Below, one piece after another: positions 3,199 through 30,376 of a stretch of 32,000 bases of DNA (positions within the stretch are counted from its first letter, which is position 1; every line of letters starts with the position of its first letter). The translations under genes were made by a program, and so were the position numbers. The notes under the pieces were generated by a model. It did not search any database. It worked only from the letters and a program-made list of their open reading frames with translations, and was not told where the DNA came from. Source of the stretch: Polynucleobacter necessarius (GTDB taxonomy: Bacteria; Pseudomonadota; Gammaproteobacteria; Burkholderiales; Burkholderiaceae); the NCBI RefSeq assembly GCF_900095195.1, contig NZ_LT606950.1, positions 270,001-302,000 of the forward strand. The letters run 5' to 3'.

Positions 3199-3201
3199 CG
3201 A

Positions 3202-3895: not shown

Positions 3896-4623
3896 AACGC
3901 TTGGACTGCTAGAACAGAGCTTGATATGGTCTTACAAATGATTTGCAACTGGCTGGCTATATCAACTCTTATTACACCAGCGCTAACCAGAACTACACCA
4001 ACCCAGAGGCCTGTGGTGATACACCAACCTGTACGGGTGGATATGGCGTGCCATCATCACATGATCCATCAACTGCATATCGACGCGGCGGGATCGAGGG
4101 CGGATCACTGGAAGTGATTTACCGCATCACGAATCCCGTAACTTCACCAGTTGGTGTCGGCTTATACCTCGAACCAACTTGGGGTAGAAATAAAGATGAG
4201 CTTGAGGCACGCTTACTCCTTCAATCGAACTTTATTGATGATCACTTGGTGCTGGCAGGCAACATTGTGGTTGCGAATGAACGTCTCAAATTTATTGAGA
4301 ACAATAATGTCCCAGAATCCATGCTCGACTTTTTGGTAGGCGCTAGCTATCGATTTGCACCCAAGTGGTCCGCAGGCGTTGAGGCCCGTTTTCATAACGA
4401 CTATTCCGAACTGAATTTACGCAACCAAGTCCAACGCGCAACCTTTATTGGACCCAACTTTCACTATGCAGAAAAAGACTGGTGGCTAACAGGCGCATGG
4501 CGCTATCAACTGGCTGGCGGCACCTGTATGGGCGGCGGCGAAGCCGAATGCTCCAACGCCCGTGTGTGGGACAGCCATTCAGTCAATGAATTCATCCTCA
4601 AAGTAGGCTTTCCACTGAACTAA
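3896..4623 (+). pseudogene. Secreted/outer-membrane-like protein of unknown function, 3' part (5' part at 26472-26657)
   Basis: NAWTARTEL is followed by a 1-nt frameshift near 3923, then YGLTNDLQLAGYINSYYTSANQ...WRYQLAGG...EFILKVGFPLN (ORF 3943-4623). There is no start codon or signal peptide here. A matching signal-peptide fragment sits at 26472. Confidence 0.7.
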
Positions 4624-4664
4624 AGCAACTTCTTTTGAACGGCCTTACGAAATAAAGACTCGCT

Positions 4665-5213
4665 ATGCATTATTGGAAATCCAGTCCGCACCTTATTGCT
4701 GGGCTAGCCATATTAACGACACCAATTTTTTCGCAAGTCAAAATTTATGTCTCCACTGAACAAGCTCAGCAAATTCTTTTCCCAAATAAAGTTCTCACAA
4801 AGTCGTCCATCATCATTACAAATGATTTACAGGAAAAGATGCGCTCAGCATCGAGCATTCGACACCCATTTCAGGGTGATCGCATTTGGAAAACTGCTGA
4901 TGGCGGTTGGTTTGTTGTGGATGAAGTCGTTGGCAAACACCAAATAATTACCTATGCCGTTGCCCTGAGTCCCAAAGGAGGCATTCTCGGGATTGAGATC
5001 CTGGAATACGTGGAGTCCTATGGCTACGAAGTTGCTGAAGCGCAATGGCGAAAACAATTTATCGGAAAAACGATCTCCGACCCCATCAAACTCAATCAGG
5101 ATATCCAAAATATTGGGGGCGCCACGCTTTCGTGCAAACACCTTACCGATGGCGTGAAACGCATTACTGTGCTCTATGACTTAGCACTTAAATTTCCCGC
5201 TAAAACGAAATGA
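4665..5213 (+). CDS. FMN-binding-domain protein (NqrC/RnfG-like), periplasmic
   Basis: Intact 182-aa ORF with an N-terminal hydrophobic segment. It carries the flavinylation-type motif GGATLSC (Thr codon at 5124-5126), as in ApbE substrates. Confidence 0.7.
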   Translation: MHYWKSSPHLIAGLAILTTPIFSQVKIYVSTEQAQQILFPNKVLTKSSIIITNDLQEKMRSASSIRHPFQGDRIWKTADGGWFVVDEVVGKHQIITYAVALSPKGGILGIEILEYVESYGYEVAEAQWRKQFIGKTISDPIKLNQDIQNIGGATLSCKHLTDGVKRITVLYDLALKFPAKTK

Positions 5214-5223
5214 GTAATGCGCT

Positions 5224-6048
5224 ATGACACGCTGCAAGCCTCTTCTGGGAACATTCGTAGAAATTGCGATTGACTCCACTCAAGATCAAGCCCCAATAGA
5301 GCATGCTTTCTCAGCGATCCAACAGATTCAGGAATTAATGGGATTTCATCATCCAGAAAGCGAGCTGAGTCGAATCAACCAACACGCTCACACTCAGGCG
5401 GTAGATATTCATCCGTGGACTGGGCAAGTGCTACGAATTGCCAAGCAGGTTCATCGACACTCCCGCGGCGTATTCAATTGCGGGATTGGTCATTGCTTGG
5501 TAGCTGCTGGCCTTTTGCCGAGACACATTGACTATTGGCAATCATGATTTAGGCGGTATTGAGGATATTCACTTCCTCACGTCGGAATTAATCACTGCAT
5601 CTCGACCCGTTTGCTTGGATCTCGGCGGAATTGCCAAAGGATTTGCTGTAGATATGGCGGTCAAGATTTTGATCTCGGAGGGAGTTTCCGCAGGTATCGT
5701 CAATGCAGGTGGCGATTTAAGAGTTTTCGGAGACTACAGCAAGCCTATTTATATTCGTAACCCTAAAAATCCCATTGAGCTTTTAGAGCTAGGTGTGCTG
5801 CAAGATAGCGCCATGGCAACAAGCAGCCTCTATTTCGCCCATCGCGATCAGCAATCAAGCTATATCTCATCAACCCGATCGCTCAAGATGCAACTGAGGT
5901 GCACATTCAATCGAATGCTTCGTATTCCATCCTAGCAAAAGAATGTGTTTATGCGGATGCATTAACCAAGGTCTTAGCGATTACCAAGCAAGTTGACCAT
6001 CCTTGCTTTCGTCATTTCTCAGCCCAAGCAATACAAATCGCAGCATGA
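5224..6048 (+). pseudogene. apbE: ApbE-family FAD:protein FMN transferase, at least two frameshifts
   Basis: MTRCKPLLGTFVEIAI...ELSRIN (ORF 5224-5547) continues after a shift as LDLGGIAKGFAVDMAV...VNAGGDLRVFG (ORF 5528-5935). A further shift leads into AKECVYADALTKVLAITKQVDHPCFRHFSAQAIQIAA, ending at TGA 6046-6048. Confidence 0.8.
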
Positions 6049-6486
6049 GTCGCCTAGGAAAAATGCCCAACCGGCAAAAATGGTTTGTGACCTTAGGGCT
6101 ATTGACTTGTTCTGTCAGTGGCAGCGCCTATCTCCTCGGACATCAATTTCGTATATATCGTTCCGTTCTAGGCTTTTCGTATATATCGTTCCATTCTAGG
6201 CTCTCACACTATCTTGGCCACTCACGGAGTGGCTGCCATGCTCGCCATCTTGGCGCTTGGCTCCGTTCTGCCGTTTCATCTGAAGGCGGGCTTTAAGTCG
6301 GGACGTAAACGTATCAGTGGTTTTGGCCAACTCAGTTTTCTAGGCCTTCTGATAGGCTCCGGCGCACTGTTGTACTATGGGCCTGAGGTTATACGAGATA
6401 TCACCGTCAATATTCATTGGGGTATTGGTTTGTTATTTATGGTTATTTTTGTCTGGCACGCCATCTTTTATCGGTATCAAAAATGA
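6045..6486 (+). pseudogene. His-rich 4-TM membrane protein disrupted by a 28-bp tandem duplication
   Basis: MSRLGKMPNRQKWFVTLGLL...GHQFRIYRS (frame of ORF 6003-6296) and ATHGVAAMLAILALG...IHWGIGLLFMVIFVWHAIFYRYQK (ORF 6214-6486) become one frame if one 28-bp repeat copy is removed. Confidence 0.7.
6151..6206. repeat. 28-bp tandem duplication (2 copies, 2-3 mismatches)
   Basis: GTATATATCGTTCCGTTCTAGGCTTTTC (6151-6178) is followed directly by GTATATATCGTTCCATTCTAGGCTCTCA (6179-6206). Confidence 0.9.
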
Positions 6487-6537
6487 ACTCCAAATAAGCG
6501 GCGGCTTCTAAGCATTCGCACGATAAAATGCCATGCA

Positions 6538-7356
6538 ATGGACTTCTCGATATTGATTAGCCCCTCCCTTGGCATCTTAGTCGGTATTTTGATGGGCTTA
6601 ACTGGTGCTGGCGGTGGCATTTTATCCGTGCCCCTACTGGTTTTTGCATTACACCTTCCCGTCGCAGAGGCAGCTCCAATCTCTTTGTCTGCAATCGCGC
6701 TCGCCGCCGGGGTTGGCGCACTACTGGGATTTAAAAATAATATTCTGCGTTACAAAGCAGCAGGCTTAATGGCAATATTTGGCTTGCTGTTCTCGCCGAT
6801 TGGTCTCTGGCTGGCTGGAAAAATTCCAAACGGTCCACTCTTAATCATCTTTAGCACGATTTTGTTTTACGTTTCTATTCGACTCTATCGGCAGGCTCAT
6901 AAAGCAATCCATGGCATTGCAGATTTTGATAACAAACCGCCTCCACCCTGCTTGCTGGATAAGTCTGTTGGCAAACTGGCCTGGAACGTTCCCTGCGCTA
7001 GAGCGTTAATGTTTTCTGGTGGTCTTGCGGGACTGCTCTCAGGGCTTCTAGGCGTAGGTGGTGGATTTGCCATTGTTCCTGCACTCAAGCGCTACACCGA
7101 CCTCCCTACTAAATCGGTTGTGGCCACCTCACTTGGGGTCCTAGCGATTGTGGCCAGTGGTGGCACATTGTTTTCAGTAATTTCAGGAAAATTTGATTTG
7201 GCAATAGCCACTCCATTTGCTACTGGAGCACTAGCAGGATTATTGGTGGGCAGATCGATTGGCAAGAAATTAAGTGGCCCCAGATTGCAGCAACTCTTTG
7301 CCATCACCGCATTCGCTGTTGCTATCAGCCTACTATTTAAAGGCTTTCATTCTTAA
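6538..7356 (+). CDS. TauE/SafE (DUF81) family anion exporter, membrane protein
   Basis: Intact 272-aa polytopic ORF with the duplicated G-rich motifs LTGAGGGILSVPLL and LLGVGGGFAIVPAL typical of the family. Confidence 0.8.
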   Translation: MDFSILISPSLGILVGILMGLTGAGGGILSVPLLVFALHLPVAEAAPISLSAIALAAGVGALLGFKNNILRYKAAGLMAIFGLLFSPIGLWLAGKIPNGPLLIIFSTILFYVSIRLYRQAHKAIHGIADFDNKPPPPCLLDKSVGKLAWNVPCARALMFSGGLAGLLSGLLGVGGGFAIVPALKRYTDLPTKSVVATSLGVLAIVASGGTLFSVISGKFDLAIATPFATGALAGLLVGRSIGKKLSGPRLQQLFAITAFAVAISLLFKGFHS

Positions 7357-7367
7357 GTTATCCAGAA

Positions 7368-7396
7368 TAAAAAAGCCCTTATTGCTAAGGGCTTTT
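7368..7396. terminator. Bidirectional rho-independent terminator
   Basis: AAAAAAAGCCCTT-ATTGCT-AAGGGCTTTT lies between convergent genes. Confidence 0.75.
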
Positions 7397-7418
7397 GATT
7401 GGATGAGCTTGCACTAGA

Positions 7419-7790
7419 TTAGTGACCGCCAGCACCACCTAAGTAAGCAGCTTTTACTGCTGGATCATCTTTGGGTTTGGCAGCTGGACCATGCGTCGGG
7501 ATTGCTGTCATCTCACCGAAAAGCTGCACGTTTTGGAAAGTACGCGCGATGTCAGACAAAGCAATATCCGAGGATGTCTTACCAACCACTGTCTCGCCAG
7601 CATAAAGAACGTTACCTGTAGTCGGCTTATAAATACCAGTGAGTACGTTCATCATGGTGCTCTTACCAGAGCCGCTTGGTCCAATCAAGCCATGAATGGT
7701 GTCGCGCTTAATACTCAGATCAACGTTGTTCAGCGCTTTCAAGCCACCAAACTGCATGAGGATCGAATCGACCTTGAGAAGCTCTTCACA
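7419..7790 (-). pseudogene. livG: livG::livF deletion fusion (branched-chain amino-acid ABC ATPases)
   Basis: EELLKVDSILMQFGGLKALNNVDLSIKRDTIHGLIGPSGSGKST...RTFQNVQLFGEMTA (LivG N-terminus, Walker A, Q-loop) runs directly into ...DDPAVKAAYLGGAGGH (LivF-type C-terminus). The signature motif and Walker B of livG, and most of livF, are absent. The 5' boundary is approximate. Confidence 0.7.
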
Positions 7791-8847
7791 AAGCCAACAA
7801 TACCGTTTTGTAGGTAGTAAACCACCAACAAAATCATGAAACCGAAAATACTTAAACGCCAGTCAGAGATGACGTTAAGCCAGAATGAGAATGCAGCCAA
7901 ACCAACCACACCTGCAATCGGAATCGCAACCCGTCTTGGGGTGGTTAATTGCTTTGACAATGCCAAGCCAGCACCGGCCAGTACAGTGAGAGCAATGATA
8001 GAAGCAACGATACGGAATAAGAAAATATCGTCGAGGAGTTTTAGTAGCAACACAATAATGGCCGCACCCAACAATGCACCCAAACGTGACTTGCGTCCAC
8101 CCATGATGATGCCAAGCAAGAACAAAACTGCGAGCTCATTGTTGTAGGTGTTCGGAGAAATGTACTGCTCAGAGTAGGCATACAAGCAACCGGCTAAACC
8201 AGCAAATGCAGCACTGATCACAAATGCGATCACTTTGAAGCGGTATACCGACACACCCATACAGTCACAAGCAATAGGACTATCGCGCAATGCTTCGAAC
8301 GCACGACCAATTTGAGATTTAACGAAACGGTCAACAACGATCATAGACATGATCAAAATCGCTGATACCATCCAGAAATACTCCGCTTTAGTCATGGGTA
8401 CGCCCATGAGTTCGGGCTTTGGAATCTTGATACCCAGAGGGCCCTCAGTCATCCAGGTCATCTCGTTAATCAGAATCTGCGTAATGGTTCCAAATGCTAG
8501 GGTCACCATCGCCAGATAGGGTCGATCACCTTCAACGCAGGCAGGGCCAAAATACCGCCGAAGATCGAGCTCACGATGATTGCTGCAGGCAACGTTCCCA
8601 AGATAGTCCAACCAAAGTGGAAATACAAAACACCCGCTGTGTATGAGCCGATTCCAAAGAGTGCTGCGTGACCCAATGAAACTTGACCAACATAACCAAC
8701 CACAATATCCAATCCGCACAACAAAACAGTGTAGATCAGAATGGTTTCAACTAAGTGAATGTAATACGGGTTATGAATCACCAACGGCAACACTATCAGC
8801 GCAGCAATCGCAATTAATAGAGGTAGTAGAGACTTCAATTTCATCAT
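7791..8847 (-). pseudogene. livM: LivM-type ABC permease, frameshifted
   Basis: The N-terminus is in ORF 8503-8847 (MMKLKSLLPLLIAIAAL...GQVSLGHAALFGIGSYTAG...ALPALKV). The remainder is in ORF 7739-8719 (GDRPYLAMVTLAFGTITQ...IMGGRKSRLGALLGAAII...). The frame switches near 8520. Confidence 0.8.
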
Positions 8848-9092
8848 TAAACTTTCTTAATTGCAGATTTGCCGAAGAGACCGGATGGTTTGTATGCCAA
8901 CACAAGCAATAAAAAAATCAAACCTGAAACATCTTTGTATCCAGTGGAGATGTAAAAACCGGTAGCGGTTTTTACAATTCCTAAAATCAGGCCACCCACA
9001 ATAATTCCGAGACCGCTTGATAAGCCACCAATAATGGCTACTGTGAAAGCCTTCAGACCCAATGCACCACCCATCGTTGCGCCGGTGAGCGT
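8847..9092 (-). pseudogene. livH: LivH-type ABC permease, 3' fragment only
   Basis: Only the last ~80 codons look like LivH (GATMGGALGLKAFTVAIIGGLSSGLGIIVGGLILGIV...YKPSGLFGKSAIKKV). The upstream part of ORF 8847-9233 is antisense to the cbiX fragment. Confidence 0.7.
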
Positions 9093-9094
9093 TA

Positions 9095-9412
9095 ATGGAG
9101 CAAGTTTTTGAATGGTTGGAAAGCCTTTGGAAAGATCAGCATCCAGATGTTTTGGCAGAGTTAGCGTTTTTAGAAATGATGCAACCCTCTCTGGAAGAGG
9201 CGATCGCTGCTTTGGGGGGAAAGGGCGTAACACAAATTACTATCGTTCCCGTCTTTTTTGGTCAGGGCGGTCATTTACGGAATGACTTTCCGTTACTGCT
9301 CAAAGAGTGTCAGCAGAAATTTCCGAAAGTTGCTTTAAGCACGACGCCGGCCGTTGGCGAGGATCTCGCAGTCTTGCAGGCGATTATCGATTGCGGGGCT
9401 CGCGTTCTTTGA
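9095..9412 (+). pseudogene. cbiX: CbiX-type sirohydrochlorin chelatase, 5'-truncated
   Basis: ...LAELAFLEMMQPSLEEAIAALGGKGVTQITIVPVFFGQGGHLRNDFP... is present. The N-terminal HGS(R) strand expected for CbiX is missing. The fragment abuts the livH fragment head-to-head at about 9092. Confidence 0.6.
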
Positions 9413-10172
9413 TTGATCGTCTGCATTTCTTAAGGCTTCACCAACCATAATGAGGGCTGGTGAGTTCTGATCAAACCATGAATCTGCCTTTCCTTGTGCG
9501 AGCTCGCCGAGCGTGCTGCTCCATAGACGTTCCCACTTGGTGCTAACCGCTTCTAATATGTTACGGGTGTCGTTGTTGTGTGATGTGTGCGTTGATCAAT
9601 CAGTTGCTGTGCAATTTTGGCCGCATATTTACGCCCCATGTAATACACCAAGGTATCTGCACTGGGATTGCTGATAGGCTGAGTTGCCGATACTGAATTG
9701 TTTTGACCGTCAGTTGCTTATGCTAAGGTAATAAATGCAACACTTCGACTGATGCCGCGCAGTGTGAGGGATTGTTGTAGGCTCGCTGCACCCGCAAGTG
9801 CAGCCGTGATACCGGGTACAACCTCGACCTCAATACCAGCATCCTTGGGTGCTTGAATCTCCTCATCGGCTCTACCAAAGAGCATTGGGTCGCCGCCTTT
9901 GAGACGTACAACCGTTTGGTATTTTTGTGCAGCATCGATTAAGCGTTTATTAATAAACGCTTGCGCGGGAGACAGCTTTCCACAGCGCTTGCCTACGGCG
10001 ATTTTCTCGGCTTGGGGGCAGAGGTAAGTATTTCAGGGTCAACTAGGGCATCGTGCAAAACAACATCCGCTTTTGCCAATAGTTTGGCACAACGCACGGT
10101 AATCAGATCTGCGGCGCCAGGGCCGGCGCCTACCAGATATACCTTACCAAGCGAAGTAGGTGTCGTTGCCAT
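9413..10172 (-). pseudogene. cobA: Uroporphyrinogen-III C-methyltransferase (CobA/CysG-type), multiple frameshifts
   Basis: The minus strand from ATG 10172 reads [44 protein letters not shown]. After shifts it reads [13 protein letters not shown]..., then VVRLKGGDPMLFGRADEEI...EVVPGITAALAGAA, then further shifts and stops to about 9413. The 3' end is approximate. Confidence 0.75.
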
Positions 10173-10212
10173 GATCGTTTGATTACCTAAAGCTTCTTAA
10201 GATTCGTTGACA

Positions 10213-10701
10213 TCAATTTGGTTGCAGCGATGTTCTCTTGCCGCGCCAACTATTTTGGGTGGTCACTGAAAACAAATCAAATTGCTTTAATGCGACATCC
10301 GTCTTTTGATCGGGGCGCAATGCAAAACTATCAAAATCAACACGAGCTCCTTGCAACAGTTGATCAATCAGCACGTCGCCGATAGCACGGATTTCACCGG
10401 TCCAGGCAAAGCGATCACGCAATAGGGCTGCGGTACTAAAACTTCTACCATCTCGAAAGATTAGAAAGTGCGCCGCCACTAAAGACCAAACTTTTTTGCC
10501 TTCTTCAATGAGATCTGCATGTTTCAAAATGTCATCATCGGCTGCAAACCAAACGCCAATCTGTCCAGCTTTGGCTTTTGCCTGAATATCCGCCTCTTGG
10601 TGATGACTGATCCACCAGGTAAAGGCACTAATACCTTGCTTTTGCCATGCTCTAGATCAGGCAGGCCACCCTCGTCGAGGCTACCACTCCAGATTAGCCA
10701 T
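10213..10701 (-). pseudogene. DUF934-family protein (sulfite-reductase-associated), stops and frameshifts in the 5' half
   Basis: The C-terminal half is intact in ORF 10213-10527 (FLIFRDGRSFSTAALLRDRFAWTGEIRAIGDVLIDQLLQGARVDFDSFAL). The N-terminal half from ATG 10701 is broken (ATGGCTAATCTGGAGTGG-TAG, then frame changes). Confidence 0.65.
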
Positions 10702-11562
10702 TCATTATCGCCTCTTGCCAAAGTTCATAGAGTTTGGCTTGCTCGACATCAGCTAACACCAGATTTTGCTCATGCGTTGAGCGCAATTCACCAAAACTGT
10801 ATTGCTCTGCCAAATCTGCAATCGCTAACATTTGTGCAGTAGTGGCATCGCCAGGAGCAACCGAACCATGCGGTTTAAGTGACAACACCACGCTGACATA
10901 ACCTGAAACTTGATGCGGTTTAACGTTGCGCTCCAACCATCTTGCAAACGCCGCCTTGTCTGCATCATTGGCAAGATTGATGACTTGCTCATTCGTTAAC
11001 GCTGGCAAATTCTTATAAGCGGGTTTCGTGAAATGCTTTGCTACACGATCCCATTCTGCTTGCGTGAAATTGTCATCACCATTCTGAATGTGCAACCACT
11101 CGCCTTCTACTTGGCGGGCGAATTCTTCAGGTCCGAGTGCTTTAACCAAGATCTTGATGCGGGCCTTATAGAGATTGTCTCTGCGGCCAAAGCGGTTATA
11201 CACACGCAGTAGGGCAGTCAGATAACTCGGCAGCAACTGCCAAAGCAATGCTTGCTTGATAAGTGATCCTAAGATGGGCGTACGACCCATACCGCCGCCT
11301 GCATAGATATCAGCCGTTAACTCGCCATTATGAATTGCTGGATTTTTCTTCAGCTCAATGCCGATGTCATGGCAAAGCAAGATCGTGCGGTCTTCTTTGG
11401 CGCCATTAATGGCAAATTTAAATTTGCGCGGTAGGTGCGCAAACTCAGGATGCAAGGTTGACCACTGGCGGAGTAATTCACAAACAGGGCGTGATCAACG
11501 TATTCATCACCAGCAACCCGTTGATTTACCAGGGTTTGGTCAATATGGTTGTATTTATACAT
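10694..11562 (-). pseudogene. cysI: Sulfite reductase hemoprotein (CysI-type) with an internal deletion, a frameshift and loss of the C-terminal third
   Basis: MYKYNHIDQTLVNQRV joins directly to AGDEYVDH... After a shift it reads RPVCELLRQWSTLHPEFAHLPRKFKFAINGAKEDR...GGGMGRTPI...RVYNRFGRRDNLYKARIKILV... It ends at LWQEAIMNG, before the siroheme/4Fe-4S Cys cluster region expected for the family. Confidence 0.8.
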
Positions 11563-11714
11563 AGACCATGATTATCATGGAAATTCAATATATCTCAAAA
11601 TAATCAAATATTTACCCTTTATACACATTTAGATATAAATGGATTGGCATATTTTCCTGCAACCAATACCCATTCGCTCCTTGTGTAGGTTTATAGTGGC
11701 GGATAGCGCATTTC

Positions 11715-13778: not shown

Positions 13779-13840
13779 ACATCATTTTTAGCGTATGCTG
13801 TACATTTAAAAAATTAAAATAATAATATTTGGGAGGCAGT

Positions 13841-15103: not shown

Positions 15104-15126
15104 TATTTTGGTAATCGCTGGGGTAG

Positions 15127-15153
15127 AAAAAAGCCCCGTTTCATCGGGGCTTT
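15127..15153. terminator. Bidirectional rho-independent terminator
   Basis: AAAAAAGCCCCG-TTTCAT-CGGGGCTTT lies between convergent genes. Confidence 0.75.
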
Positions 15154-15175
15154 AGCTTTTCTGGCGCATCATTTT

Positions 15176-17773: not shown

Positions 17774-17857
17774 GTAGCTATTTTAGACGGCTATTGAGAG
17801 TCTGCTGTACTGATGACCAATGTTGAAGTTTGGTAAATAATAGAGCGATAAATTCGA

Positions 17858-18900: not shown

Positions 18901-19153
18901 CCATTTTGAACTATTGAGTACCTTCAGATTGCCATCGGATCGCAATGAATAGAATGCCTGAGTATTGCTCACACATTTTTTTGAAACCAGTTCGGGAACT
19001 TGGCAATTTCATACCAGGTCCCCAAGTAACGTGGAACATCCAAGGATGAAATCGTTTTGACTGGTACATCAATCGTTTGAGCATAAGCAGTGTTACCAAA
19101 TAGCAGAAAAGTACTGCTAAAAAAATAGGGAGTGCAGAATGAATTTTAGTCAT
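18901..19153 (-). pseudogene. blc: Bacterial lipocalin (Blc-like), 5' fragment with frameshifts
   Basis: The minus strand reads MTKIHSALPIFLAV... It shifts into LLFGNTAYAQTIDVPVKTISSLDVPRYLGTWYEIAKFPNWFQK, then into AFYSLRSDGNLKVLNS, and then stops. YLGTWYEIA is the lipocalin signature. Confidence 0.7.
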
Positions 19154-19201
19154 TACTTTTTCATGATGAGATTCGAGTAATTTGTTCTCTGCAACCACTG
19201 C

Positions 19202-20177: not shown

Positions 20178-20237
20178 TTATGCAATAGGGCTATTTTGCA
20201 ACCGTTTTGAATTATGCGTATTGCGCGAATTTAGTGA

Positions 20238-20645
20238 TTAACTTTGGGCTTCGCGCATCTTATTGAGTAGAGACAAACTATGTTTGTCCATACCGCCGAC
20301 CATTCCTGCTAATACTGGATAGTCACGAATGAGGGTTTCGCCCCTATAAAACCGCAATAGCTACTCAGGATAAGTTCGTTCCGTGATCTCACGAATTTCC
20401 AGCAACTCGATCCGGTGATGCCGTTTGTCTTCCTGAATACGCTTCCAGACTTTCATAGTGTTGGCGCGTTCACCCTCGATGATTTGTCCAAATTGCTGGT
20501 TGTCATAGAACAAAATGCCAGTAATACCGTGCTGCTGATTGAATGCGCGAGCAGATTCTAATAAACGCATCAGCCCAAGAAAAGACGTATCCGAGACAGT
20601 TTCGTTCAGATAACTCAATTCAACAAGGTCGTTTGGTTTTGGCAT
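20238..20645 (-). pseudogene. BLUF-domain (blue-light FAD sensor) protein with an in-frame TAG
   Basis: MPKPNDLVELSYLNE...NQQHGITGILFYDNQQFGQIIEGE...IQEDKRHHRIELLEIREITERTYPE is followed by TAG (20361-20363), where the family has Trp. The same frame continues LLRFYRGETLIRDYPVLAGMVGGMDKHSLSLLNKMREAQS to TAA 20238-20240. Confidence 0.65.
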
Positions 20646-20684
20646 GGGGGGGTAATTCAAAGGTGATGCAATCGTGAGAACGAT

Positions 20685-20714
20685 AAAAAAGCAAACCCGA
20701 GAGTTTGCTTTTTT
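20685..20714. terminator. Rho-independent terminator downstream of icd
   Basis: AAAAAAGCAAAC-CCGAGA-GTTTGCTTTTTT. Confidence 0.8.
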
Positions 20715-20756
20715 AGCTTAATCCTAATTGATTAAATTAGGACTTATGACTAACAC

Positions 20757-22994
20757 CTATTGCGCTCTTACTGCCTTTAGCGCTGCATTGAAAGTAGAAC
20801 TTGGACGCATAACAGCTTTGCACTTCTCAGAATCAGCTAGGTAATAACCGCCGATATCGGCTGGCTTACCTTGGACTGCTTTGAGCTCAGACACAATCTT
20901 CTGCTCATTTTCAGCCAACGATTTAGCTAGCGGTGCGAAATACGTTTGCAATTCTTTGTCCTCAGTCTGGTTTTCCAGTGCTTCAGCCCAGTACATGGCG
21001 AGATAGAACTGGCTTCCACGGTTATCCAACTCACCAGTACGTGGTGAAGGAGACTTGTTGTTATCCAACAATTTACCGGTTGCCTCGTCCAGAGTACGCG
21101 CTAGGATCTTCACTTTCGGGTTACCCGTCTTATCGCCAATATCTTTAAGCGATACAGCCAAGGCCAAGAACTCGCCAAGGGAATCCCAACGCAAGTGATT
21201 TTCTTCTACAAGCTGTTGAACGTGCTTCGGCGCTGATCCACCAGCACCAGTTTCAAAGAGGCCACCACCAGCCATCAATGGCACGATTGATAACATCTTC
21301 GCACTGGTTCCCAATTCCATGATGGGGAACAAATCGGTGAGGTAGTCACGCAAGCTGTTGCCAGTCACAGAAATAGTGTCTTTGCCACGAATCACGCGCT
21401 CGAGGGTGTAACGCATTGCGCGGGTTTGAGACATGATCTGAATATCAACACCTTCGAGGTCATAGTCCTTGAGATAGGTTTTCACCTTTTTGATCAACTC
21501 TGCCTCGTGAGGGCGGTACTCGTCCAACCAGAATACTGCTGGAGTGTTCGAGAGACGCGCACGATTTACTGCCAACTTCACCCAATCGCGAATCGGTGCA
21601 TCTTTGACTTGGCACATACGCCAGATATCACCCTCTTCTACGTTTTGCTCAAGTAATACAGTCCCGTCATCGGCAACAATACAAGCGACACCAGCTTCTG
21701 GAATTTCGAAGGTCTTGTCATGTGAGCCGTACTCTTCCGCTTGTTGCGCCATCAAACCAACGTTAGGCACTGTACCCATCGTGGTTGGATCAAAGTTGCC
21801 ATGGGTCTTACAGAAATTAATCATTTCTTGATAGATACGGGCAAACGTACTTTCTGGAATGACTGCCTTAGTGTCATGCAAGCGACCATCCGCGCCCCAC
21901 ATCTTGCCGCCGACACGAATCATTGCGGGCATCGACGCATCAACGATCACAGCGCTTGGTGAATGGAGATTGGTGATACCTTTAGCAGAATCCACCATCG
22001 CCAAAGCTGGACGATGCTCGTGACAAGCATGCAAATCCTGAGTGATCTCTTCGCGCTTAGACTCTGGCAACGATTTAATCTTGTCATAGAGGCTGCCCAT
22101 ACCATTATTGGCATTCACACCCAACTCTTCAAACAACTTAGCATGTTTGGTAAAAGCATCTTTGTAGAAAATCTTCACAGCGTGACCAAAAACGATCGGG
22201 TGTGACACTTTCATCATGGTCGCTTTTACGTGCAAGGACAGCATCATGCCAGTTTTGTACGCATCTTCGATTTCTTTTTCATAGAACTCGCACAATGCTT
22301 TCTTACTCATGTACATGCTGTCGATGATTTCGCCTTCAAGCAAAGAGACCTTTGGTTTGAGCACAATGGTTTTTCCGCTCTTTGTAACCAAATCCATCTT
22401 GACGTCACACGCTTTTGTCATCGTCATCGACTTCTCACTAGAGTAGAAGTCACCACCATGCATGTGAGAAACGTGGGTGCGGGAGGCTTGACTCCACTCA
22501 CCCATGGAGTGTGGGTTCTTGCGCGCATAGCGCTTCACAGCGGGTGGCGCACGACGGTCGGAGTTACCTTCGCGCAATACTGGGTTTACTGAGCTACCCA
22601 AGCATTTTGAATAACGGGTACGAATAGCTTTTTCTTCATCCGTTTTTGGATCTTCTGGGAAATTCGGGATCTTGTATCCCTTGCTTTGCAATTCTTTGAT
22701 GGCTGCCAAAAGCTGGGGAACGGATGCGCTAATGTTTGGCAACTTAATAATGTTGGTGTCTGGCAAAAGTGTCAGCTTGCCAAGCTCCGCTAGATTGTCA
22801 GGTACTTTTTGTGCATCGGTTAAGCAATCAGAAAACTCAGCCAAGATGCGAGCGGCAACAGAAATGTCGCTCTTTACAACCTCCATTCCAGCAGGCGCTG
22901 TAAATGTACGAATGATTGGCAGAAACGCACAGGTCGCCAATAATGGCGCTTCGTCTGTCAGCGTGTAAATAATCTTTGATTTCTCTGAAGCCAT
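20757..22994 (-). CDS. icd: Monomeric NADP-dependent isocitrate dehydrogenase
   Basis: Uninterrupted 745-aa ORF. The length and N-terminus ([22 protein letters not shown]...) are typical of monomeric-type IDH. All plus-strand ORFs inside are antisense shadows. Confidence 0.92.
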
Positions 22995-23245
22995 TAACTT
23001 TTCCTCGATATTGATAAATTTACAGAGTCAGGTTTTTACCCTGCCACTCTCATAATCCGCATTTTGCAAGCCGCTTTTAGCCGCCTCTTGGTCAATGAGG
23101 CGAGTCTTTAATTTTAAATCATCGGGATTGGCAAAAATGGGGGTTTTGCACCTGAATTCAGCGGATAAACCCTCAAATTTAAGGGAATCCACCAACCCTA
23201 TGAGGAATATACTGAGCCACTCATTCGTACCCATTAGGAAAAAAT

Positions 23246-23597
23246 ATGACTGAACTCAAAAAAATCGATACCGTTGTCGGAAACGGTCAAGAAGCTGTCG
23301 CTGGTAACCACGTGGATGTTTGTTTATTACACCGGCTGGCTCTTTGATGAGAGCGCACCCGATAACAAAGGCCAGAAGTTTGATAGCTCACTGGATCGCG
23401 GCCAGCTCTTTGGTTTTCCGTTGGGTGCAGGTCACGTTATTAGGGGCTGGGATCAAGGCGTCGCTGGCATGAAGATCGGTGGCAAACGCACATTAATCAT
23501 CCCTCCAGATATGGGTTACGGCGCACGCGGTGCTGGCGGTGTCATTCCTCCAAACACCACTTTGGTCTTCGACGTGGAATTACATGGCGTGAACTAA
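23246..23597 (+). pseudogene. FKBP-type peptidyl-prolyl isomerase disrupted by a 4-bp tandem duplication
   Basis: [25 protein letters not shown] (from ATG 23246) and YYTGWLFDE...[46 protein letters not shown]...[10 protein letters not shown] (ORF 23274-23597) are in frames that differ by one position. The GTTTGTTT at 23317-23324 accounts for the shift. Confidence 0.8.
23317..23324. repeat. 4-bp tandem duplication GTTT-GTTT
   Basis: GAT GTTT GTTT AT TAC; removing one GTTT gives ...HVDVYYTGW..., the FKBP consensus. Confidence 0.7.
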
Positions 23598-23622
23598 TCG
23601 CTTTGTGGTTACCTGAAAACAC

Positions 23623-23645
23623 AAAAGCCACCCTAGGGTGGCTTT
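23623..23645. terminator. Bidirectional rho-independent terminator
   Basis: AAAAGCCACC-CTAG-GGTGGCTTT lies between convergent genes. Confidence 0.75.
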
Positions 23646-23679
23646 ATTTATATGTATTTACTTAGTGGGAGCAGTTTGA

Positions 23680-24633
23680 TTAAGAGCGCAAATCTTTACC
23701 ATTTAACGTAAGACGATTGGTGGATTTAGTTTGGCAAAGGCCAATTAAACGATTGCGCTCAGCCATGACTTTGTCTGCATAACCGCCATCATCTTCCGCA
23801 TTGGCAGCGCCCACATAGTATTTCAAACCATTCCGCAAAGATCCTGCCGTAGCAATCAGATACTTGAGAATATAAGCGCCCACACGAATATTGACTTCAG
23901 GCTTCGCGGCTTCACGAGTACCGCCAAACAAGGCATATTTATCGCGATGGACGGATGTCATGACTTGCATCAAACCTTCTGCGCCAGCATGACTCTTGGT
24001 ATTGGGATTGAAGTTTGACTCCACCGAAATCACTGCCAAAAGTAACACTGGATCAATATTGACCTCTTTTGCGATCAGGATGGTATTGGAGACATACTCT
24101 TCGATCTTCTTACGATCGAGGCTGTACTTCTTCTCAAAAAAATCCGCTACTGCACGTTGATTCTGAATAGAGCCCATTAAATTACTGTCCAAGGCTTGCG
24201 GATCAATCTTGGAGGCTGGAATGCGATCTGCCAAATGCGAAATCGACTTCACGGGCACTTGGGCAACAGAAGGCATGAGTAAGGCAACGGTTTGCTGTCT
24301 CGCACTAGCAAAGCCAACATTAGAAGATGCCTGGGCAATCCCTTCGCCATGAGCGTTTTCATTCTTGTATTGGTCTAGCATGCCAAAGCCATTGCTCCAC
24401 ACAATATGGCGGGCTTCGTCTGGAACGAGAATGCGAGCCAGATCAAATGGGCCTGCATTCGTGCCATTGCCAGACAGCCAAAGTCCTACAACCATGAATA
24501 CCGTGACAACGAGTACGCCATTGATGACTCGATACACAGGAGCCATACCATGCGCAAGCAGTTCTTTGGCCGCCAGCATTGCCGGTTGCGCCTCCTGCAT
24601 TTCACTCAAATTGTTTGATAAACATTTACTCAT
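23680..24633 (-). CDS. Membrane-anchored lytic transglycosylase (SLT domain)
   Basis: Intact 317-aa ORF with an N-terminal TM helix and the SLT motif LLLAVISVESNFNPNTKSHAGAEGLMQV...AYILKYL. Confidence 0.8.
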   Translation of the reverse strand: MSKCLSNNLSEMQEAQPAMLAAKELLAHGMAPVYRVINGVLVVTVFMVVGLWLSGNGTNAGPFDLARILVPDEARHIVWSNGFGMLDQYKNENAHGEGIAQASSNVGFASARQQTVALLMPSVAQVPVKSISHLADRIPASKIDPQALDSNLMGSIQNQRAVADFFEKKYSLDRKKIEEYVSNTILIAKEVNIDPVLLLAVISVESNFNPNTKSHAGAEGLMQVMTSVHRDKYALFGGTREAAKPEVNIRVGAYILKYLIATAGSLRNGLKYYVGAANAEDDGGYADKVMAERNRLIGLCQTKSTNRLTLNGKDLRS

Positions 24634-25060
24634 TCAGTTGGTTGCGACACCCATAAAACCTAACTACTGATTTATGCTGCATCGCAATATGTAAAAACAT
24701 GGGTCATCCTAAAAAGGTTCTTATATCAAGTCAAGAATAAAGAGGATCATTTCCATAACTTTTAAGTCTCGCAATACGGGTCATCCCGCATATGCACCAA
24801 ATAAGACACATTTAATTCAATAAAATCAATAACTTATATATGTTAAGAGGCGCTAATTTCATTTTGTAAAAAATTTTCAAAAACCCAACTTTTTTACTAT
24901 TTGAAAGAAAAAATTCTTTCAAAAACCCATACATCTAGTGTTTTTCACCCCCTTCATTTCTGCCGGCAGTGCTCTTACAAATTGCTGCGGAGCATTATGG
25001 ATCAAGGACTTAGAGGGTTAGATAGCCACCCGAGAGATTGGCGTCCTAAACTAGAGACTC

Positions 25061-26086
25061 ATGAATATTCACCTAAAACAATTCGCAACCTTGGGCTTAC
25101 TGGTTTTACTAATCAGCCCACTGAGAGCGCTTGCTCTCTTTAATGACTGCAAGGACTTCTTCCCCCATCAACAGGTACCCGTGACTGCACAAACTGGTCG
25201 AGACCTTTGTTTTGATAGCTTTGCGATCTTTTACTCACCGCAAGATAAAAAGCCCATCTACACTGTAGAGAAATTAAACCGCGAGCAGCTCTTAGCACCA
25301 CACCCGCGCAGAACAAATCAATTTTATGAAGAAGCTCGACTGCCCTTTGCAGAGCGTGCTCAACTATCCGATTATCGAGGCAGCGGCCATGACCGAGGCC
25401 ACAATGTTCCCGCGGGGGATATGATTAATGAAAGGACTATGGCCCAGTCGTTTTCGCTGGCCAACATGATGCCTCAGGCCAGACTCAATAACCAAGGGAT
25501 ATGGGCCAAGAACGTTGAGGAGCCCACCAGGCAGTATGTCAAACGCGCCCAAGGCGATATCTATATTTTTACCGGGTCCACAGGCAACCAAGGGAGCATT
25601 GGCAAAAATCGCGTCACCATTCCGAGTCACTTGTTCAAATTGGTTTACGACCCTCATAAAAATGATGCATGGGCCTATTGGATTGAAAACGCAAATGAAG
25701 CGGGAATGTCCCCACCAATTTCGTATGCAGAATTGGTTTCAAAGACGGGGATTGATTTTCAGTTGCCCATAAAAACCGGCACTCCAATCCAACATACTCC
25801 AACTGACCCCAAACCAGTCAAGCCTATAGTGGGCGGCTGGTACCCGATCTTTTTTGATGACTGCTCCAGCAATAAGCTTGATGCACTGATGGCTCGCATT
25901 CAAGCGGGCCAAGTGGCGAGCGTGCAAATTCAATACGACCGCAATCGTGAGCTGGCAAGGAAAATCGCTTCTCGAATCGAGTCAAGCTCTTCCATCCAGG
26001 CTAGCATCGAACAAAGTAGCCCGCCGGAGTCACCCAGCGTTCAATATGAGCGGGATCGTGTAACACTGATTGTCCGCTCCAGGTAA
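25061..26086 (+). CDS. Secreted DNA/RNA non-specific endonuclease (NucA/EndoG-type beta-beta-alpha-Me) with an uncharacterised C-terminal extension
   Basis: Intact 341-aa ORF with signal peptide MNIHLKQFATLGLLVLLISPLRALA and active-site motif GHDRGHNVPAGDM...N. The last ~100 aa resemble nothing I recognise. Confidence 0.8.
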   Translation: MNIHLKQFATLGLLVLLISPLRALALFNDCKDFFPHQQVPVTAQTGRDLCFDSFAIFYSPQDKKPIYTVEKLNREQLLAPHPRRTNQFYEEARLPFAERAQLSDYRGSGHDRGHNVPAGDMINERTMAQSFSLANMMPQARLNNQGIWAKNVEEPTRQYVKRAQGDIYIFTGSTGNQGSIGKNRVTIPSHLFKLVYDPHKNDAWAYWIENANEAGMSPPISYAELVSKTGIDFQLPIKTGTPIQHTPTDPKPVKPIVGGWYPIFFDDCSSNKLDALMARIQAGQVASVQIQYDRNRELARKIASRIESSSSIQASIEQSSPPESPSVQYERDRVTLIVRSR

Positions 26087-26317
26087 CTAATCTTTGCGTT
26101 GCAGCCCATGCGCTTTCGGAATGGGATCAAGAGGTCCACGTAAACCGTTGTGAAGCGTATGCATCAACTCCAGCAGCTCGCCTAATTCGCCTTTCGGAAA
26201 TCCCTTTCGGGCAAACCACGCTAGATAGTTTCCCGGCAAATCTGCCAGCGCACGTCCTGCATGCTTGCCATAGGGCATTTTCATCAACACTAGCTTTTCG
26301 AGTGATTGCGCATCCAT
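26087..26317 (-). CDS. DUF3820-family protein
   Basis: Intact 76-aa ORF. MPYGKHAGRALADLPGNYLAWFARKGFPKGELGELL matches the DUF3820 pattern. Confidence 0.7.
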   Translation of the reverse strand: MDAQSLEKLVLMKMPYGKHAGRALADLPGNYLAWFARKGFPKGELGELLELMHTLHNGLRGPLDPIPKAHGLQRKD

Positions 26318-26393
26318 TACTGCGGAATTTTACTGGTAAAGCCTAATTCCCTTAGCGATTTCACCATTTATCAAAAAATAGTCTTTTTCGTAT

Positions 26394-26437
26394 TTGATAA
26401 TTATTCTCATTTGATGGTATATTGAGAACAGTTCTCA
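26394..26437 (+). promoter_or_regulatory. Sigma70-like promoter overlapped by two Fur-type 7-1-7 inverted repeats
   Basis: TTGATA (26394-26399), 18 nt, then TATATT (26418-26423). Box 1 is TGATAAT-T-ATTCTCA (26395-26409), one mismatch to TGATAATnATTATCA. Box 2 is TGAGAAC-A-GTTCTCA (26423-26437), a perfect palindrome. The ATG is at 26472. Confidence 0.55.
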
Positions 26438-26471
26438 TTTAGATTTTTAACCACTCTCTTTTCAAATACCC

Positions 26472-26657
26472 ATGAAATTGACCATTCAAAAACTATTCGC
26501 CTTTTGCCTTGTCCTTGTTGCCGCCCTTCACTTTTCCCTAGCCCATGCTGGGGAAGGAGCCTTTGGCTGGATTTATACCCTCGACCTACAGCCCAAAGGA
26601 AAATGGGAGTTTGAGCAACGCTTACAGTTAAATCAAACCCAAGCATCTGGAACCAAA
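26472..26657 (+). pseudogene. Secreted/outer-membrane-like protein, 5' part (3' part at 3896-4623)
   Basis: MKLTIQKLFAFCLVLVAALHFSLAHA (signal peptide) [36 protein letters not shown]. Sense ends at CCAAA 26653-26657. Confidence 0.7.
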
Positions 26658-26811
26658 GCCAACAGATGCTGATATTGATAATGCAATGTCCAATGTTTGC
26701 CGTTGTGGAACATACCAAAAGATTCGAGATGGTATTCATGTTGCCTCGGGTCAGAAAAAATTAGCAGATGTCTTGGCGCAGTACCAAGCAACCCCTGCAA
26801 CACGTGGTTAA
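26658..26811 (+). pseudogene. iorA: iorA-like 2Fe-2S subunit, 3' part (5' part at 3552-3895)
   Basis: (PK)[34 protein letters not shown]... runs to TAA 26809-26811. This is the second Cys cluster and C-terminus expected after ...AAALLK..P.P. It lies 10 nt upstream of the large-subunit start. Confidence 0.8.
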
Positions 26812-26821
26812 GGAGAGAGAC

Positions 26822-29026
26822 ATGACATTAGAAAACTCTTCCCGTCGCGAATTTATTATCAAGGGCTCCATGGTCGGAGGCGGCCTGATGTTAGGGATTG
26901 GCGCTTTACCAGAGGCGGCATTTGCGCAATCTGGGCCACATAATCCCAATACCCCAACAAAAGCGGGTGAGGCTGAAGTCAATGCTTGGGTCAGCATTAA
27001 GCCGGATGATACGGTCTATATTCGTATTGCTCGCTCTGAGATGGGGCAAGGTACGCGTACTGGTTTAGCGCAATTGGTTACCGAAGAGCTCGAATGCAAC
27101 TGGAAAAAAGTTAAAACCCAGTCTGCAACTTCTGGCCAAAGTTTGGCTCGTAAGCGTGTATGGGGTGAGCATGGAACTGGCGGCAGTCACGGCATTCGTA
27201 TTTCCGAGGACTATGTTCGTCGTGGCGCAGCAGCAGCGCGTAGCATGCTGCTACAAGCAGCCGCGAATCAGTGGAACGTTCCAGTGACCGAGCTTACTGT
27301 AGGTAAAGGTGTTATCACGCATGTGCCAACAGGGCGTAAAACTACCTACGGTAAAGTTGCGGAACTTGCCTCTACGCTGACCCCTCCTGATCCAAAAACG
27401 ATTACGTTGAGAGATCCTCGCACTTGGAAAGTGGCTGGTCAACCATACGCCCGTATTGATACGGCCAATAAGGCAAATGGCACAAAGGTTTATGGTGCCG
27501 ACCTGCAACTACCTGGCATATTGTGTGCCTCGGTTAAATCCTGTCCAGTATTTGGCGGTAAGTTGGTGAGCTATGACGAAGCCAAGATTAAAAACATGCG
27601 CGGCGTTAAAGGCGTTGTGCAGATCAATGAGAGTACCTTAGCCGTTGTCGCGGATACGTGGTGGCGAGCTAATACCGCTCTCAATGCGTTGCCAATTGTT
27701 TGGGATAAAGGCAAGGCTGCTAACGTTTCTCAGAGCGATATCGACAAGATGATGCGCGCTGGCTTAGATGAGCAAGGCGATTTTTGGCAACGCAAGGTTG
27801 ACGATGCGCCGCAAGCGATTAATGGCTCGGCAAAAAAGTTGAAGCCATTTATTACACCCCGTACTGTGCACACGTTACGATGGAGCCAATGAATGCCGCT
27901 GTCAAAATCAGTGGTGATCGTGCTGAGGTTGGGTGCCTACGCAAAACGGCGAAGGCTCCTTGGCAGCATTGTCAGAAGCTACCGGCATTTCATTGCCTAA
28001 CTGCGAAGTGTATAAATTAGACTCGGGTTGTGGTTTAGGTCGTCGAGGCTCTACTCAAGACTTCGCTACCTTTGCAGCCAAGGTGGCCATGAAATACCCT
28101 GGTACTCCTGTCAAGGTGCTTTGGAGTCGTGAAGAGGTATTATGCATGACTATTACCATCCAATTGCGATGGCTAAGATGACTGCGGGTCTTGATGCCAG
28201 TGGAAATGTCACAGGCATGCACATCAAGGTTGCTGGGCAATCGATTCATGCTACGCTTGCCATTCAAAATATTAAAGATGGCAAGGATGAGCGGCAGCTG
28301 CAAGGCTTTTATGAAAAAGGACCCGATGTTCAACCCGGTTATACCTTCCCGAGTTTACTAACCGAGTACGTCATGAAAAACACCCACGTACCAGTGGGTC
28401 CTTGGCGTGGGGTGAATACCAATCAAAACGGTATTTTCATGGAATGCTTTATGGACGAGTGCGCTAAAGCAGCCGGTAAAGATCCTGCGAAATTTAGACA
28501 AGCTGTCATGCAGAGTCACCCCAAGCATTTGGGCGTGCTCAATGCTGCCGCTCAAAAAGCGAATTGGGATAAGCCGCTGCCAGCAGGGACGTATCGTGGT
28601 GTAGCACGGTTTATGGGTTACGCCAGTTACTCTGCATGCGTGGCAGAAGTATCAGTGGATGGCAATATCGCCCATGTGAAACGCTTGGTGTTTGCGTTAA
28701 ACCCAGGACATGTAGTCAATTCGTATTTAACGCGTGAGCAAATTGAGGGCTCTGTGGCCATGGCTTTGGGCGCTATTTTCAATCCAGAAATCACCGTTGA
28801 AAATGACCGGATCAAGCAACAGAACCTCGATTCCTACCCGATGCTGAAATTGGCCTCGACACCACGAATCGAGACGGTGTTGGTACCAACCTATGATTTT
28901 TGGGGTGGTGTTGGTGAGCCCACAATCTGCGTAGTCGGTCCCGCAGTGGCGAATGCCGTTTCAGCGGCGATTGGCAGGCCAGTACGTAACTTCCCGCTCT
29001 ACAAAGAGGGTCTAACCTTGGCCTAG
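26822..29026 (+). pseudogene. iorB: IorB-like molybdopterin-binding large subunit (aldehyde-oxidase/xanthine-dehydrogenase family), at least three frameshifts
   Basis: Tat signal MTLENSSRREFIIKG... A shift near 27865 leads into YYTPYCAHVTMEPMNAAV...AEV. A 1-nt loss leads into WVPTQNGEGSL...GLGRRG...VLWSREE. A shift near 28135 leads into MHDYYHPIAMAKMTAGLD...GEPTICVVGPAVANAV... (ORFs 26768-27892, 27933-28181, 28142-29026). Confidence 0.85.
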
Positions 29027-29051
29027 TGCGTCGGTGTTATGTAAAGCATTG

Positions 29052-29081
29052 CGACCCCTGCAGAAAAATTTGTAGGGGTCG
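29052..29081 (+). terminator. Hairpin downstream of iorB (terminator-like)
   Basis: CGACCCCTGCA-GAAAAATT-TGTAGGGGTCG followed by TTT. The T-tract is short. Confidence 0.5.
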
Positions 29082-29095
29082 TTTAACATGGGTCT

Positions 29096-30312: not shown

Positions 30313-30376
30313 GTCCAGATTTTAATGCTTGCCTAGCTGGTAGTATTAGGGTTCCCTATCTGAAAGATTGCTACAC

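Follow-up and report, generated by a model that had tools for sequence, protein, structure and literature searches.

Inversions that arise by microhomology-mediated or non-homologous end-joining are two-break reciprocal exchanges, which leave 0-5 nucleotides (nt) of identity at the joints and sometimes a few filler or mutated bases. A different route is described in PMC4285135 for Sodalis/SOPE and Serratia symbiotica, in which inversions of early symbiosis scramble gene order and often inactivate genes through homologous recombination between copies of insertion sequences (IS). The same source, in its summary of Boscaro et al. 2013, presents Polynucleobacter necessarius as a recent, pseudogene-rich symbiont of Euplotes without mobile elements, whose genome reduction is put down to illegitimate recombination; it further reports that the bacterium is polyploid and has lost repair genes. 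Here we analyze 32,000 nt of P. necessarius DNA (RefSeq assembly GCF_900095195.1, contig NZ_LT606950.1, positions 270,001 to 302,000), a stretch referred to throughout as the window. Compared with its relatives, the window carries four novel junctions at which halves of unrelated genes meet: iorA with the gene of a DUF6662 outer-membrane-like protein (two junctions), livH with cbiX, and a GMC oxidoreductase gene with the lipocalin gene blc. The best explanation, and in our judgment a likely one, is three nested inversions, without repeats at their ends, of which the GMC-blc exchange came last.

Results

Relatives combine to give an ancestral gene order

With a G+C content of 45-48% and many short broken open reading frames (ORFs) next to a few intact genes (icd, DHFR, SRAP and an AT3-SGNH acyltransferase), the window belongs to a pseudogene-rich endosymbiont of the P. 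necessarius type. Homologous loci were gathered by searching genomes with the C-terminal portion of the DUF6662 protein, and the 80 loci obtained are nearly all from free-living Polynucleobacter, at 78-94% protein identity. Sequences are cited below by locus number; among them are L081 (another P. necessarius genome, LT606951), L082 (a metagenome contig whose iorB gene call, of 628 aa, looks intact), L083, L088 and L089 (one 85-kb metagenome contig, JGI 3300049821 Ga0509788_00111), L085 (a single 9.25-kb contig that runs from icd through iorB), L055 (the PPGSP2 locus) and L087 (a 1735-bp Logan contig from run SRR14234079). A preliminary description of this DNA had partitioned it into S1 (1-3895), S2 (3896-19201), S3 (19202-26657), S4 (26658-29086) and S5 (29087 to the end). 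We kept these names, redivided S2 into S2a (3896-9103) and S2b (9104-18898), and grouped the remaining 18899-19201, the 5′ part of blc, with S3.

On Ga0509788_00111, read from L088 and L083, the gene order is MBL-blc-msrP-BLUF-icd-...-DUF6662-livFGMH-livK-eamA-GMC-darP-AT3-...-DUF308-...-cysI-DUF934-cobA-cbiX-Na/Ca exchanger. In window coordinates this contig runs 18909 up to 23193 and, further on, 26472 up to 26644, 3897 up to 4623 and 7501 up to 9103, and then, after a 3.6-kb gap, from 18898 down to 9125. L085 in turn reads 22895 down to 20773, 20143 down to 19202, 19065 down to 18905, 36 up to 402, 1549 up to 3895 and 26653 up to 27810. Because the 85-kb contig combines with L085 and L082 to give it, the following order, with iorA on the plus strand and rc for reverse complement, can be read from these sequences as that of the ancestor: (Na/Ca exchanger, cbiX-5′) S2b (GMC-3′ eamA livK livH-5′) rc(S2a) rc(S3+blc-5′) (blc-3′ MBL-5′) S1 S4 S5. 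The order now found in the window is S1 S2a S2b (blc-5′+S3) S4 S5. The preliminary description had proposed S1 S4 rc(S2) rc(S3) S5 as the ancestral order, which is found in no relative. The blocks and junctions are as follows.

1-3895, plus strand: S1, in net ancestral orientation; collinear with L081 7354-9729, L085 4442-7977 and L086 30-2445.
3891-3896: junction A; 5′ part of iorA joined to the 3′ part of the DUF6662 gene, with CCAAA at the joint.
3896-9103, plus strand: S2a, net inverted; directly continues 26657 in 78 of 79 loci.
9103-9104: junction B; 3′ part of livH (minus) and 3′ part of cbiX (plus), diverging, both 5′ parts missing from the window.
9104-18898, plus strand: S2b, in net ancestral orientation (putatively inverted twice); in L014, L083, L084 and L088 and in 12 loci, collinear but in the opposite direction to S2a.
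18898-18899: junction C; 5′ part of the GMC oxidoreductase gene (plus) and 5′ part of blc (minus), converging, both 3′ parts missing from the window.
18899-26657, minus strand: 5′ part of blc with S3, net inverted; alignment unbroken over 19201/19202 in L014, L081 and L088.
26653-26658: junction D; 5′ part of the DUF6662 gene joined to the 3′ part of iorA, with CCAAA at the joint; reciprocal of junction A.
26658-32000, plus strand: S4 and S5, a single block in ancestral orientation; L081 9725-12737 and L082 1-5022 align through 29086/29087.

Ga0509788_00111 is the sequence nearest to the window for CysI (86%) and DUF6662 (88%). Many of its genes are fragmented (cysI, a TonB receptor gene, livK, GMC), yet it has the ancestral gene order; its source may be a further Polynucleobacter in decay, perhaps one associated with a host.

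iorA and the DUF6662 gene exchanged halves

The gene for the 2Fe-2S subunit, iorA, is split at 3895/26658, and joining the two positions restores one continuous frame, which reads QCGYCQSG*VMTAAALLK*IPK up to the joint and continues across it. In L081, L085 and L086 iorA is uninterrupted, and on each of them the two alignments with the window share 5 nt (L081 9725-9729, L085 7973-7977, L086 2441-2445). The DUF6662 gene (assigned by Pfam) is split at 26657/3896, and joining these positions restores a DUF6662 protein; the two halves are adjacent in 78 of the 79 loci of relatives. Both reconstitutions had been proposed in the preliminary description, iorA from S1 and S4 and the outer-membrane-like gene from the end of S3 and the start of S2, and both were borne out, as was the presence of CCAAA at the two joints (3891-3895 and 26653-26657). 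Junctions A and D lie inside the window and are exact reciprocals, and both parent genes are intact in relatives. Since the halves of iorA and of the DUF6662 gene are restored by joining and are adjacent in relatives, the two junctions are the reciprocal products of one exchange. An exchange between these two genes had been part of the preliminary description too, and in that respect it was right; the segment inverted is, however, not S4 with rc(S2) but a stretch of about 13 kb that has the DUF6662 gene at one end and iorA at the other, with icd, msrP, blc and S1 in between.

Two further breakpoints lie inside S2

The preliminary description had treated S2 as one rigid block and four breakpoints as sufficient. 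From the DUF6662 gene on, relatives continue with window 3896 up to 9103, next with 3.6 kb without a counterpart in the window, and then with window sequence descending from 18898. S2 is split in this manner in all 12 informative loci, where S2a is followed by the descending block from 18898; of the 12, six show the gap of 3.6 kb, and from the other six the liv operon is missing. In L031 the 3.6 kb consist of the rest of livH, livK, eamA and the rest of the GMC oxidoreductase gene, and in L083 and L084 the descending block comprises GMC...DUF308...cysI-DUF934-cobA-cbiX and ends at window position ~9125. Furthermore, the GMC alignments of at least 12 relatives end at 18898 and the blc alignment of L081 ends at 18899. 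By tblastn, the window holds of LivH only residues 208-292, of the GMC protein the part before the break and of Blc about the first 90 residues, and it gave no match to LivK, EamA or SDR. By these alignments S2 is two blocks, with 9103/9104 and 18898/18899 as true breakpoints that had been overlooked, and at least three events are needed.

Of each of the cbiX/livH and GMC/blc exchanges one junction is visible in the window, and at both junctions the gene orientations are those expected from an inversion between genes of the same orientation. Deletion was considered as the origin of the GMC-blc junction and rejected: it would take out S1 and S2a, both of which are present.

GC skew agrees with these blocks as independent support. 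It is +0.052 in S1, -0.046 in S2a, +0.048 in S2b, -0.059 in the 5′ part of blc with S3, and +0.077 in S4 and S5, so that its sign changes exactly at the four junctions (3896, 9104, 18899 and 26658), and it is uniformly positive in the reconstructed ancestor. The ancestor proposed in the preliminary description would leave S2b with the wrong sign. The skew of the inverted blocks has not yet equilibrated, which is consistent with recent events.

Three inversions suffice, and at least one exchange is very recent

Inversion scenarios were enumerated exhaustively, with the missing pieces put where a reciprocal exchange would place them. We found that three inversions, the theoretical minimum, are enough to sort the arrangement with each breakpoint used once, and that only two orders of events reach this minimum, both with the GMC-blc exchange last. 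In the three-inversion scheme S1 and S2b are inverted twice, and S2a and the 5′ part of blc with S3 once.

The path from ancestor to present order would thus consist of three reciprocal two-break exchanges, each cutting inside two genes. Exchange 1, between iorA and the DUF6662 gene, would have inverted the ~13-kb segment and left the junctions 3895/3896 and 26657/26658. Exchange 2, between cbiX and livH, would have inverted S2b together with the 3.6-kb piece (GMC-3′, eamA, livK, livH-5′) and left 9103/9104 in the window. Exchange 3, between GMC and blc, would have re-inverted S2b and S1, inverted S2a and left 18898/18899. If all three were inversions, exchanges 1 and 2 would be independent of each other and could have come in either order, with exchange 3 last. 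For exchanges 2 and 3 the reciprocal junctions (cbiX-5′/livH-5′ and GMC-3′/blc-3′) are predicted to lie beyond the left end of the window, at a distance of 0.9-5 kb. The claim in the preliminary description that the sequence of events can be determined holds in part: some of the time order is recoverable, but it is a different order from the one proposed there.

The L087 contig is 97.5-98.5% identical to window 11519-10621 and 9575-9107. Past 9107 it continues into an intact 120-aa cbiX and the DNA upstream of it, not into livH, and junction 9103/9104 is absent. Because a strain that is 98% identical is without this junction, the cbiX-livH exchange is very recent and, under the inversion-only order, so is the GMC-blc exchange. 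In the parts visible, L081, L084 and L055 have none of the junctions. A search for further contigs of the L087 strain with a chimeric GMC and DUF6662 query returned nothing above 88% identity. L087 also lacks window 9576-10620, which holds the cobA and DUF934 remnants, so at least one inversion junction and an indel of ~1 kb separate the two strains.

The TTAA sites next to msrP and msrQ are not breakpoints

A second inversion had been placed in the preliminary description at TTAA sites, and the sequence is indeed present at 19202-19205 and 29083-29086. The minus-strand ORF at 18911-19198, however, is the 5′ part of blc. In L014 msrP is directly followed by a gene for a 192-aa Blc, and the alignments of L014, L081 and L088 extend without a gap from ~18900 to msrP and icd, past 19201/19202. 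At the opposite site, L081 and L082 have the order iorB-msrQ-SRAP-...-DHFR-thyA and align straight over 29086/29087; iorAB is thus followed by msrQ and not by blc, which the preliminary description had itself named as grounds for its refutation. Since the alignments of relatives run through both positions, 19201/19202 and 29086/29087 are ancestral adjacencies and not rearrangement breakpoints of this lineage. In the blc-type loci the ATG of blc lies 0-5 nt past the msrP stop, which is TAA, TAG or TGA; with a stop this variable and blc so close, TTAA is merely the context of the msrP stop codon in this strain. TTAA was also considered as a target-site duplication of the block from blc to iorAB, and this was ruled out by the variable stop context and the blc ATG 0-5 nt away.

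Of the 44 loci that extend past msrP on its downstream side, at least 22 carry blc there, 13 carry msrQ and 6-7 (L009, L020, L040, L044, L050, L052 and L063) carry a third gene. The loci with blc include the closest relatives of the window (Icd identity of 97.3% in L014, 96.6% in L031 and 96.1% in L037), and their MsrP is 84-89% identical to that of the window, compared with 78-82% for the loci with msrQ. In the blc-type clade nearest to the window a block of 6-9 kb (blc-MBL-SDR-DUF2889-rluX-pterin4a-iorAB), all in one orientation, stands between msrP and msrQ; L085 holds icd-msrP-blc-MBL-SDR-DUF2889-rluX-pterin4a-iorA-iorB on its one contig. The direct neighborhood of msrP and msrQ is seen in the 13 more distant Polynucleobacter loci (e.g. 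L017 and L038). The restored msrP-msrQ pair, taken as the trace of an inversion when S5 is set after rc(S3), is thus no such trace: the separation of the two genes is an older indel, not an inversion, and is unrelated to the three exchanges.

Breakpoints show little pre-existing homology

The positions 3895, 9103, 18898 and 26657 are free of repeats of at least 16 nt, no IS lies at any breakpoint, and no tRNA was found there, in agreement with the preliminary description, which had noted no IS or long repeat. As no repeat is involved, the exchanges are illegitimate, and the broad view taken in the preliminary description, of illegitimate recombination in a decaying genome free of IS, agrees with what PMC4285135 relates of P. 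necessarius. Homologous inversion mediated by IS or other repeats would leave inverted copies flanking the segment, and none of 16 nt or more was found at the breakpoints. As to site-specific invertible segments (Hin/Gin-type or shufflon), no recombinase was found among the 20 ORFs scanned against Pfam, a scan outside which some small ORFs fell; in contrast to site-specific inversion, the breakpoints sit inside unrelated coding sequences and destroy them.

The 4-5 bp of microhomology claimed in the preliminary description fared less well, for although CCAAA is present at both iorA/DUF6662 junctions, a 5-bp identity before the exchange is doubtful. At the iorA site the window and L081 read ATT CCA AAG CCA, and L085 and L086 have CCT (CCTAA). 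At the DUF6662 site 75 of 75 relatives read GGN ACN TAY GAN/AAC GCN TGG and none of the 75 has CCAAA. The pre-existing identity supported at this pair of sites is 'CC' plus one A, i.e. 2-3 nt; by chance, identity of at least 5 nt is expected at ~0.5% and of at least 2 nt at ~16%. A clean exchange needs CCAAA in both parents. Either a mutation had already changed the conserved Tyr codon in the symbiont copy, or at the joints a duplication of 3-5 nt from iorA went with a loss of 3-5 nt from the DUF6662 gene. The five shared nucleotides may in part be a post-hoc coincidence or a duplication. At 18898/18899 the shared identity is at most 'AT', and junction 9103/9104 holds 2-3 bases that could not be assigned, with mismatches close by, even in comparison with the 98.5%-identical strain. 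The best fit to these joints is likely to be illegitimate, error-prone end-joining of double-strand breaks, which would have acted on 0-3 nt of pre-existing identity.

Gene content of the blocks

The genes and remnants of each block are listed below (Pfam, with tblastn for the MBL and livH remnants); the strand is given where it differs from that of the block.

3-353: S1, MBL-fold hydrolase remnant; 421-726: FAA-hydrolase fragment; 1197-1526: SBP fragment.
1536-2075, minus strand: S1, DUF2889, followed by a pseudouridine-synthase remnant; 2633-3198: pterin-4a dehydratase; 3552-3895: 5′ part of iorA.
3896-4623: S2a, 3′ part of the DUF6662 gene; 4665-5213: FMN_bind protein; 5224-5935: ORFs; 6538-7356: TauE.
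7419-8847, minus strand: S2a, livF/G/M pseudogenes; 8850-9103, minus strand: 3′ part of livH.
9104-9412: S2b, 3′ part of cbiX, followed by a cobA-like remnant; 10213-10527, minus strand: DUF934; 10694-11643, minus strand: cysI fragments.
11715-13778: S2b, intact AT3+SGNH acyltransferase; 13873-14817: beta-lactamase-like pseudogene; 15936-16522: DUF308.
16731-17777: S2b, AT3; 17882-18898: 5′ part of the GMC oxidoreductase gene.
18899-19198: 5′ part of blc; 19202-20177: S3, msrP pseudogene; 20361-20660: BLUF; 20757-22994: intact icd.
23274-23597, plus strand: S3, FKBP; 23680-24633: SLT transglycosylase; 25061-26086, plus strand: NS endonuclease; 26472-26657, plus strand: 5′ part of the DUF6662 gene.
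26658 to ~26811: S4, 3′ part of iorA; ~26822-29026: iorB pseudogene; 29050-29081: terminator-like hairpin; 29096 to ~29690: S5, msrQ pseudogene.
29689-30312, minus strand: S5, SRAP; 31135-31623, minus strand: DHFR; 31635-31883, minus strand: ORF at the position of thyA in relatives.

The window begins inside the MBL-fold hydrolase pseudogene (1-402, residues 190-306). The SDR gene that follows MBL in L031 and L085 is gone from the window, and the FAA-hydrolase and SBP fragments stand in its place. The 687-aa ORF of the AT3 and SGNH acyltransferase is intact inside a pseudogene-rich block, and there is no such gene at this place in L014 or L084. Relatives have 0.3-2.3 kb of additional DNA at window 23195-23235, 24944-25115, 6150-6523 and 7350-7499, for example an MFS transporter gene between icd and FKBP in L088; at these points the symbiont has lost DNA that free-living genomes retain. 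At 6147-6202 there is a 28-nt tandem duplication, perfect but for one position (TTTCGTATATATCGTTCCGTTCTAGGCT twice).

Discussion

Our results point to three nested inversions by end-joining as the probable origin of the present gene order, and several observations weigh against that reading. The counterpart junctions of exchanges 2 and 3 are missing from the window and may have been deleted. The conclusion that the GMC-blc exchange came last is valid only if every event was an inversion; it fails under excision and re-integration of a circle, for a GMC-blc exchange that came first makes iorA and the DUF6662 gene direct repeats. In addition, three events within ~36 kb of ancestral sequence are suspiciously clustered for independent ones. 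Finally, because of the unassignable bases and mismatches at junction B, the breakpoints are exact to within a few nt only.

We consider it unlikely, albeit worth weighing, that the same three pairs of sites were joined otherwise than by successive inversions. In an excision version the GMC-blc exchange would come first, iorA and the DUF6662 gene, then in direct orientation, would excise a circle (S2a...S1), and the circle would re-integrate between cbiX and livH; in a single-event version one complex shattering or template-switching event would have struck the polyploid symbiont. Reasoning from the junction orientations, such alternative use of the same sites yields an identical final arrangement. 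All six breakpoints fall in the ~36 kb just mentioned, and the polyploidy and loss of repair genes reported in PMC4285135 also speak for it. The excision version, however, needs the loss and recapture of a circle bearing retained genes, and a minimum of three inversions with each breakpoint used once is the outcome of successive simple inversions. L087 is uninformative on a single complex event, as every junction would be missing from a strain that had split off before the first of the events. The broader proposition that the three exchanges were not independent of each other, and arose within the last ~1-2% of divergence either in a single complex event or in a local fragile region of a polyploid, repair-deficient symbiont, strikes us as improbable; if true, clustered complex rearrangements would have a bacterial counterpart free of IS.

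Other explanations survive less well than the three inversions. That the junctions are mis-joins in the source assembly is very improbable: each of the four joins two specific truncated genes in mutually consistent orientations, A and D are exact reciprocals, the DNA offers no repeats by which an assembler could have been misled, and the GC skew matches the blocks. Equally hard to credit is the insertion of 3896-26657 into iorA as a foreign element or Campbell-type circle. A circularized 3896-26657 does restore the DUF6662 gene, and iorA is interrupted exactly by this 22.8-kb piece; yet the piece is ordinary chromosomal DNA throughout, with conserved neighbors in at least 80 relatives and syntenic homologs for all blocks, its G+C matches that of the flanks (0.45-0.48 in all blocks), it holds two further novel junctions, and no integrase was found among the ORFs scanned. 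The model of the preliminary description, an inversion X at CCAAA followed by an inversion Y at TTAA, restores the iorA and DUF6662 frames and an msrP-msrQ neighborhood that is real in the 13 distant loci, but it can be all but dismissed, because relatives (L081, L085, L088, L082) combine the junctions that Y should have produced, msrP next to blc and iorB next to msrQ, with the intact iorA and DUF6662 genes that precede X, and since, besides, iorB is never followed by blc in relatives, S2 is broken twice, the positive skew of S2b is opposite to that of a net-inverted block, and TTAA is not conserved.

The window is a base-resolved case of gene-order scrambling in a young endosymbiont without mobile elements, in which each of three probable inversions destroyed two genes at joints almost devoid of homology. 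At least one of the inversions is so recent that near-identical strains differ in it, which puts the rate of illegitimate recombination in genome decay, and its mechanism, within reach of measurement in the Polynucleobacter/Euplotes system. The case also carries a caution: the 'reconstitution' of genes from a single sequence had pointed to an msrP-msrQ inversion, and relatives show that none occurred.

Set beside known systems, the msrPQ (yedYZ) operon is represented by homologs of both genes, kept apart by the 6-9-kb block in the clade of the window. The unassigned bases at junction B resemble the filler or mutated bases of end-joining inversions, with the difference that at the CCAAA site the DUF6662 genes of relatives read CC/CT-TAY. 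Like the inversions of Sodalis/SOPE and Serratia symbiotica, those proposed here scramble gene order and inactivate genes, but in contrast to recombination between IS copies they have no repeat of at least 16 nt and no transposase at their breakpoints. The nearest parallel is the genome decay described by Boscaro et al. 2013, as relayed by PMC4285135, in the same group of organisms: pseudogene-rich, without proliferation of mobile elements, and with illegitimate recombination after the loss of repair genes. There, by that second-hand account, the process is described genome-wide; here it is seen as three putative nested inversions at base resolution, with the halves of the genes, a partial order of events and a near-identical strain that lacks one junction. 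The window is thus a fresh example of a process already accepted for this organism, illegitimate recombination in the course of genome decay.

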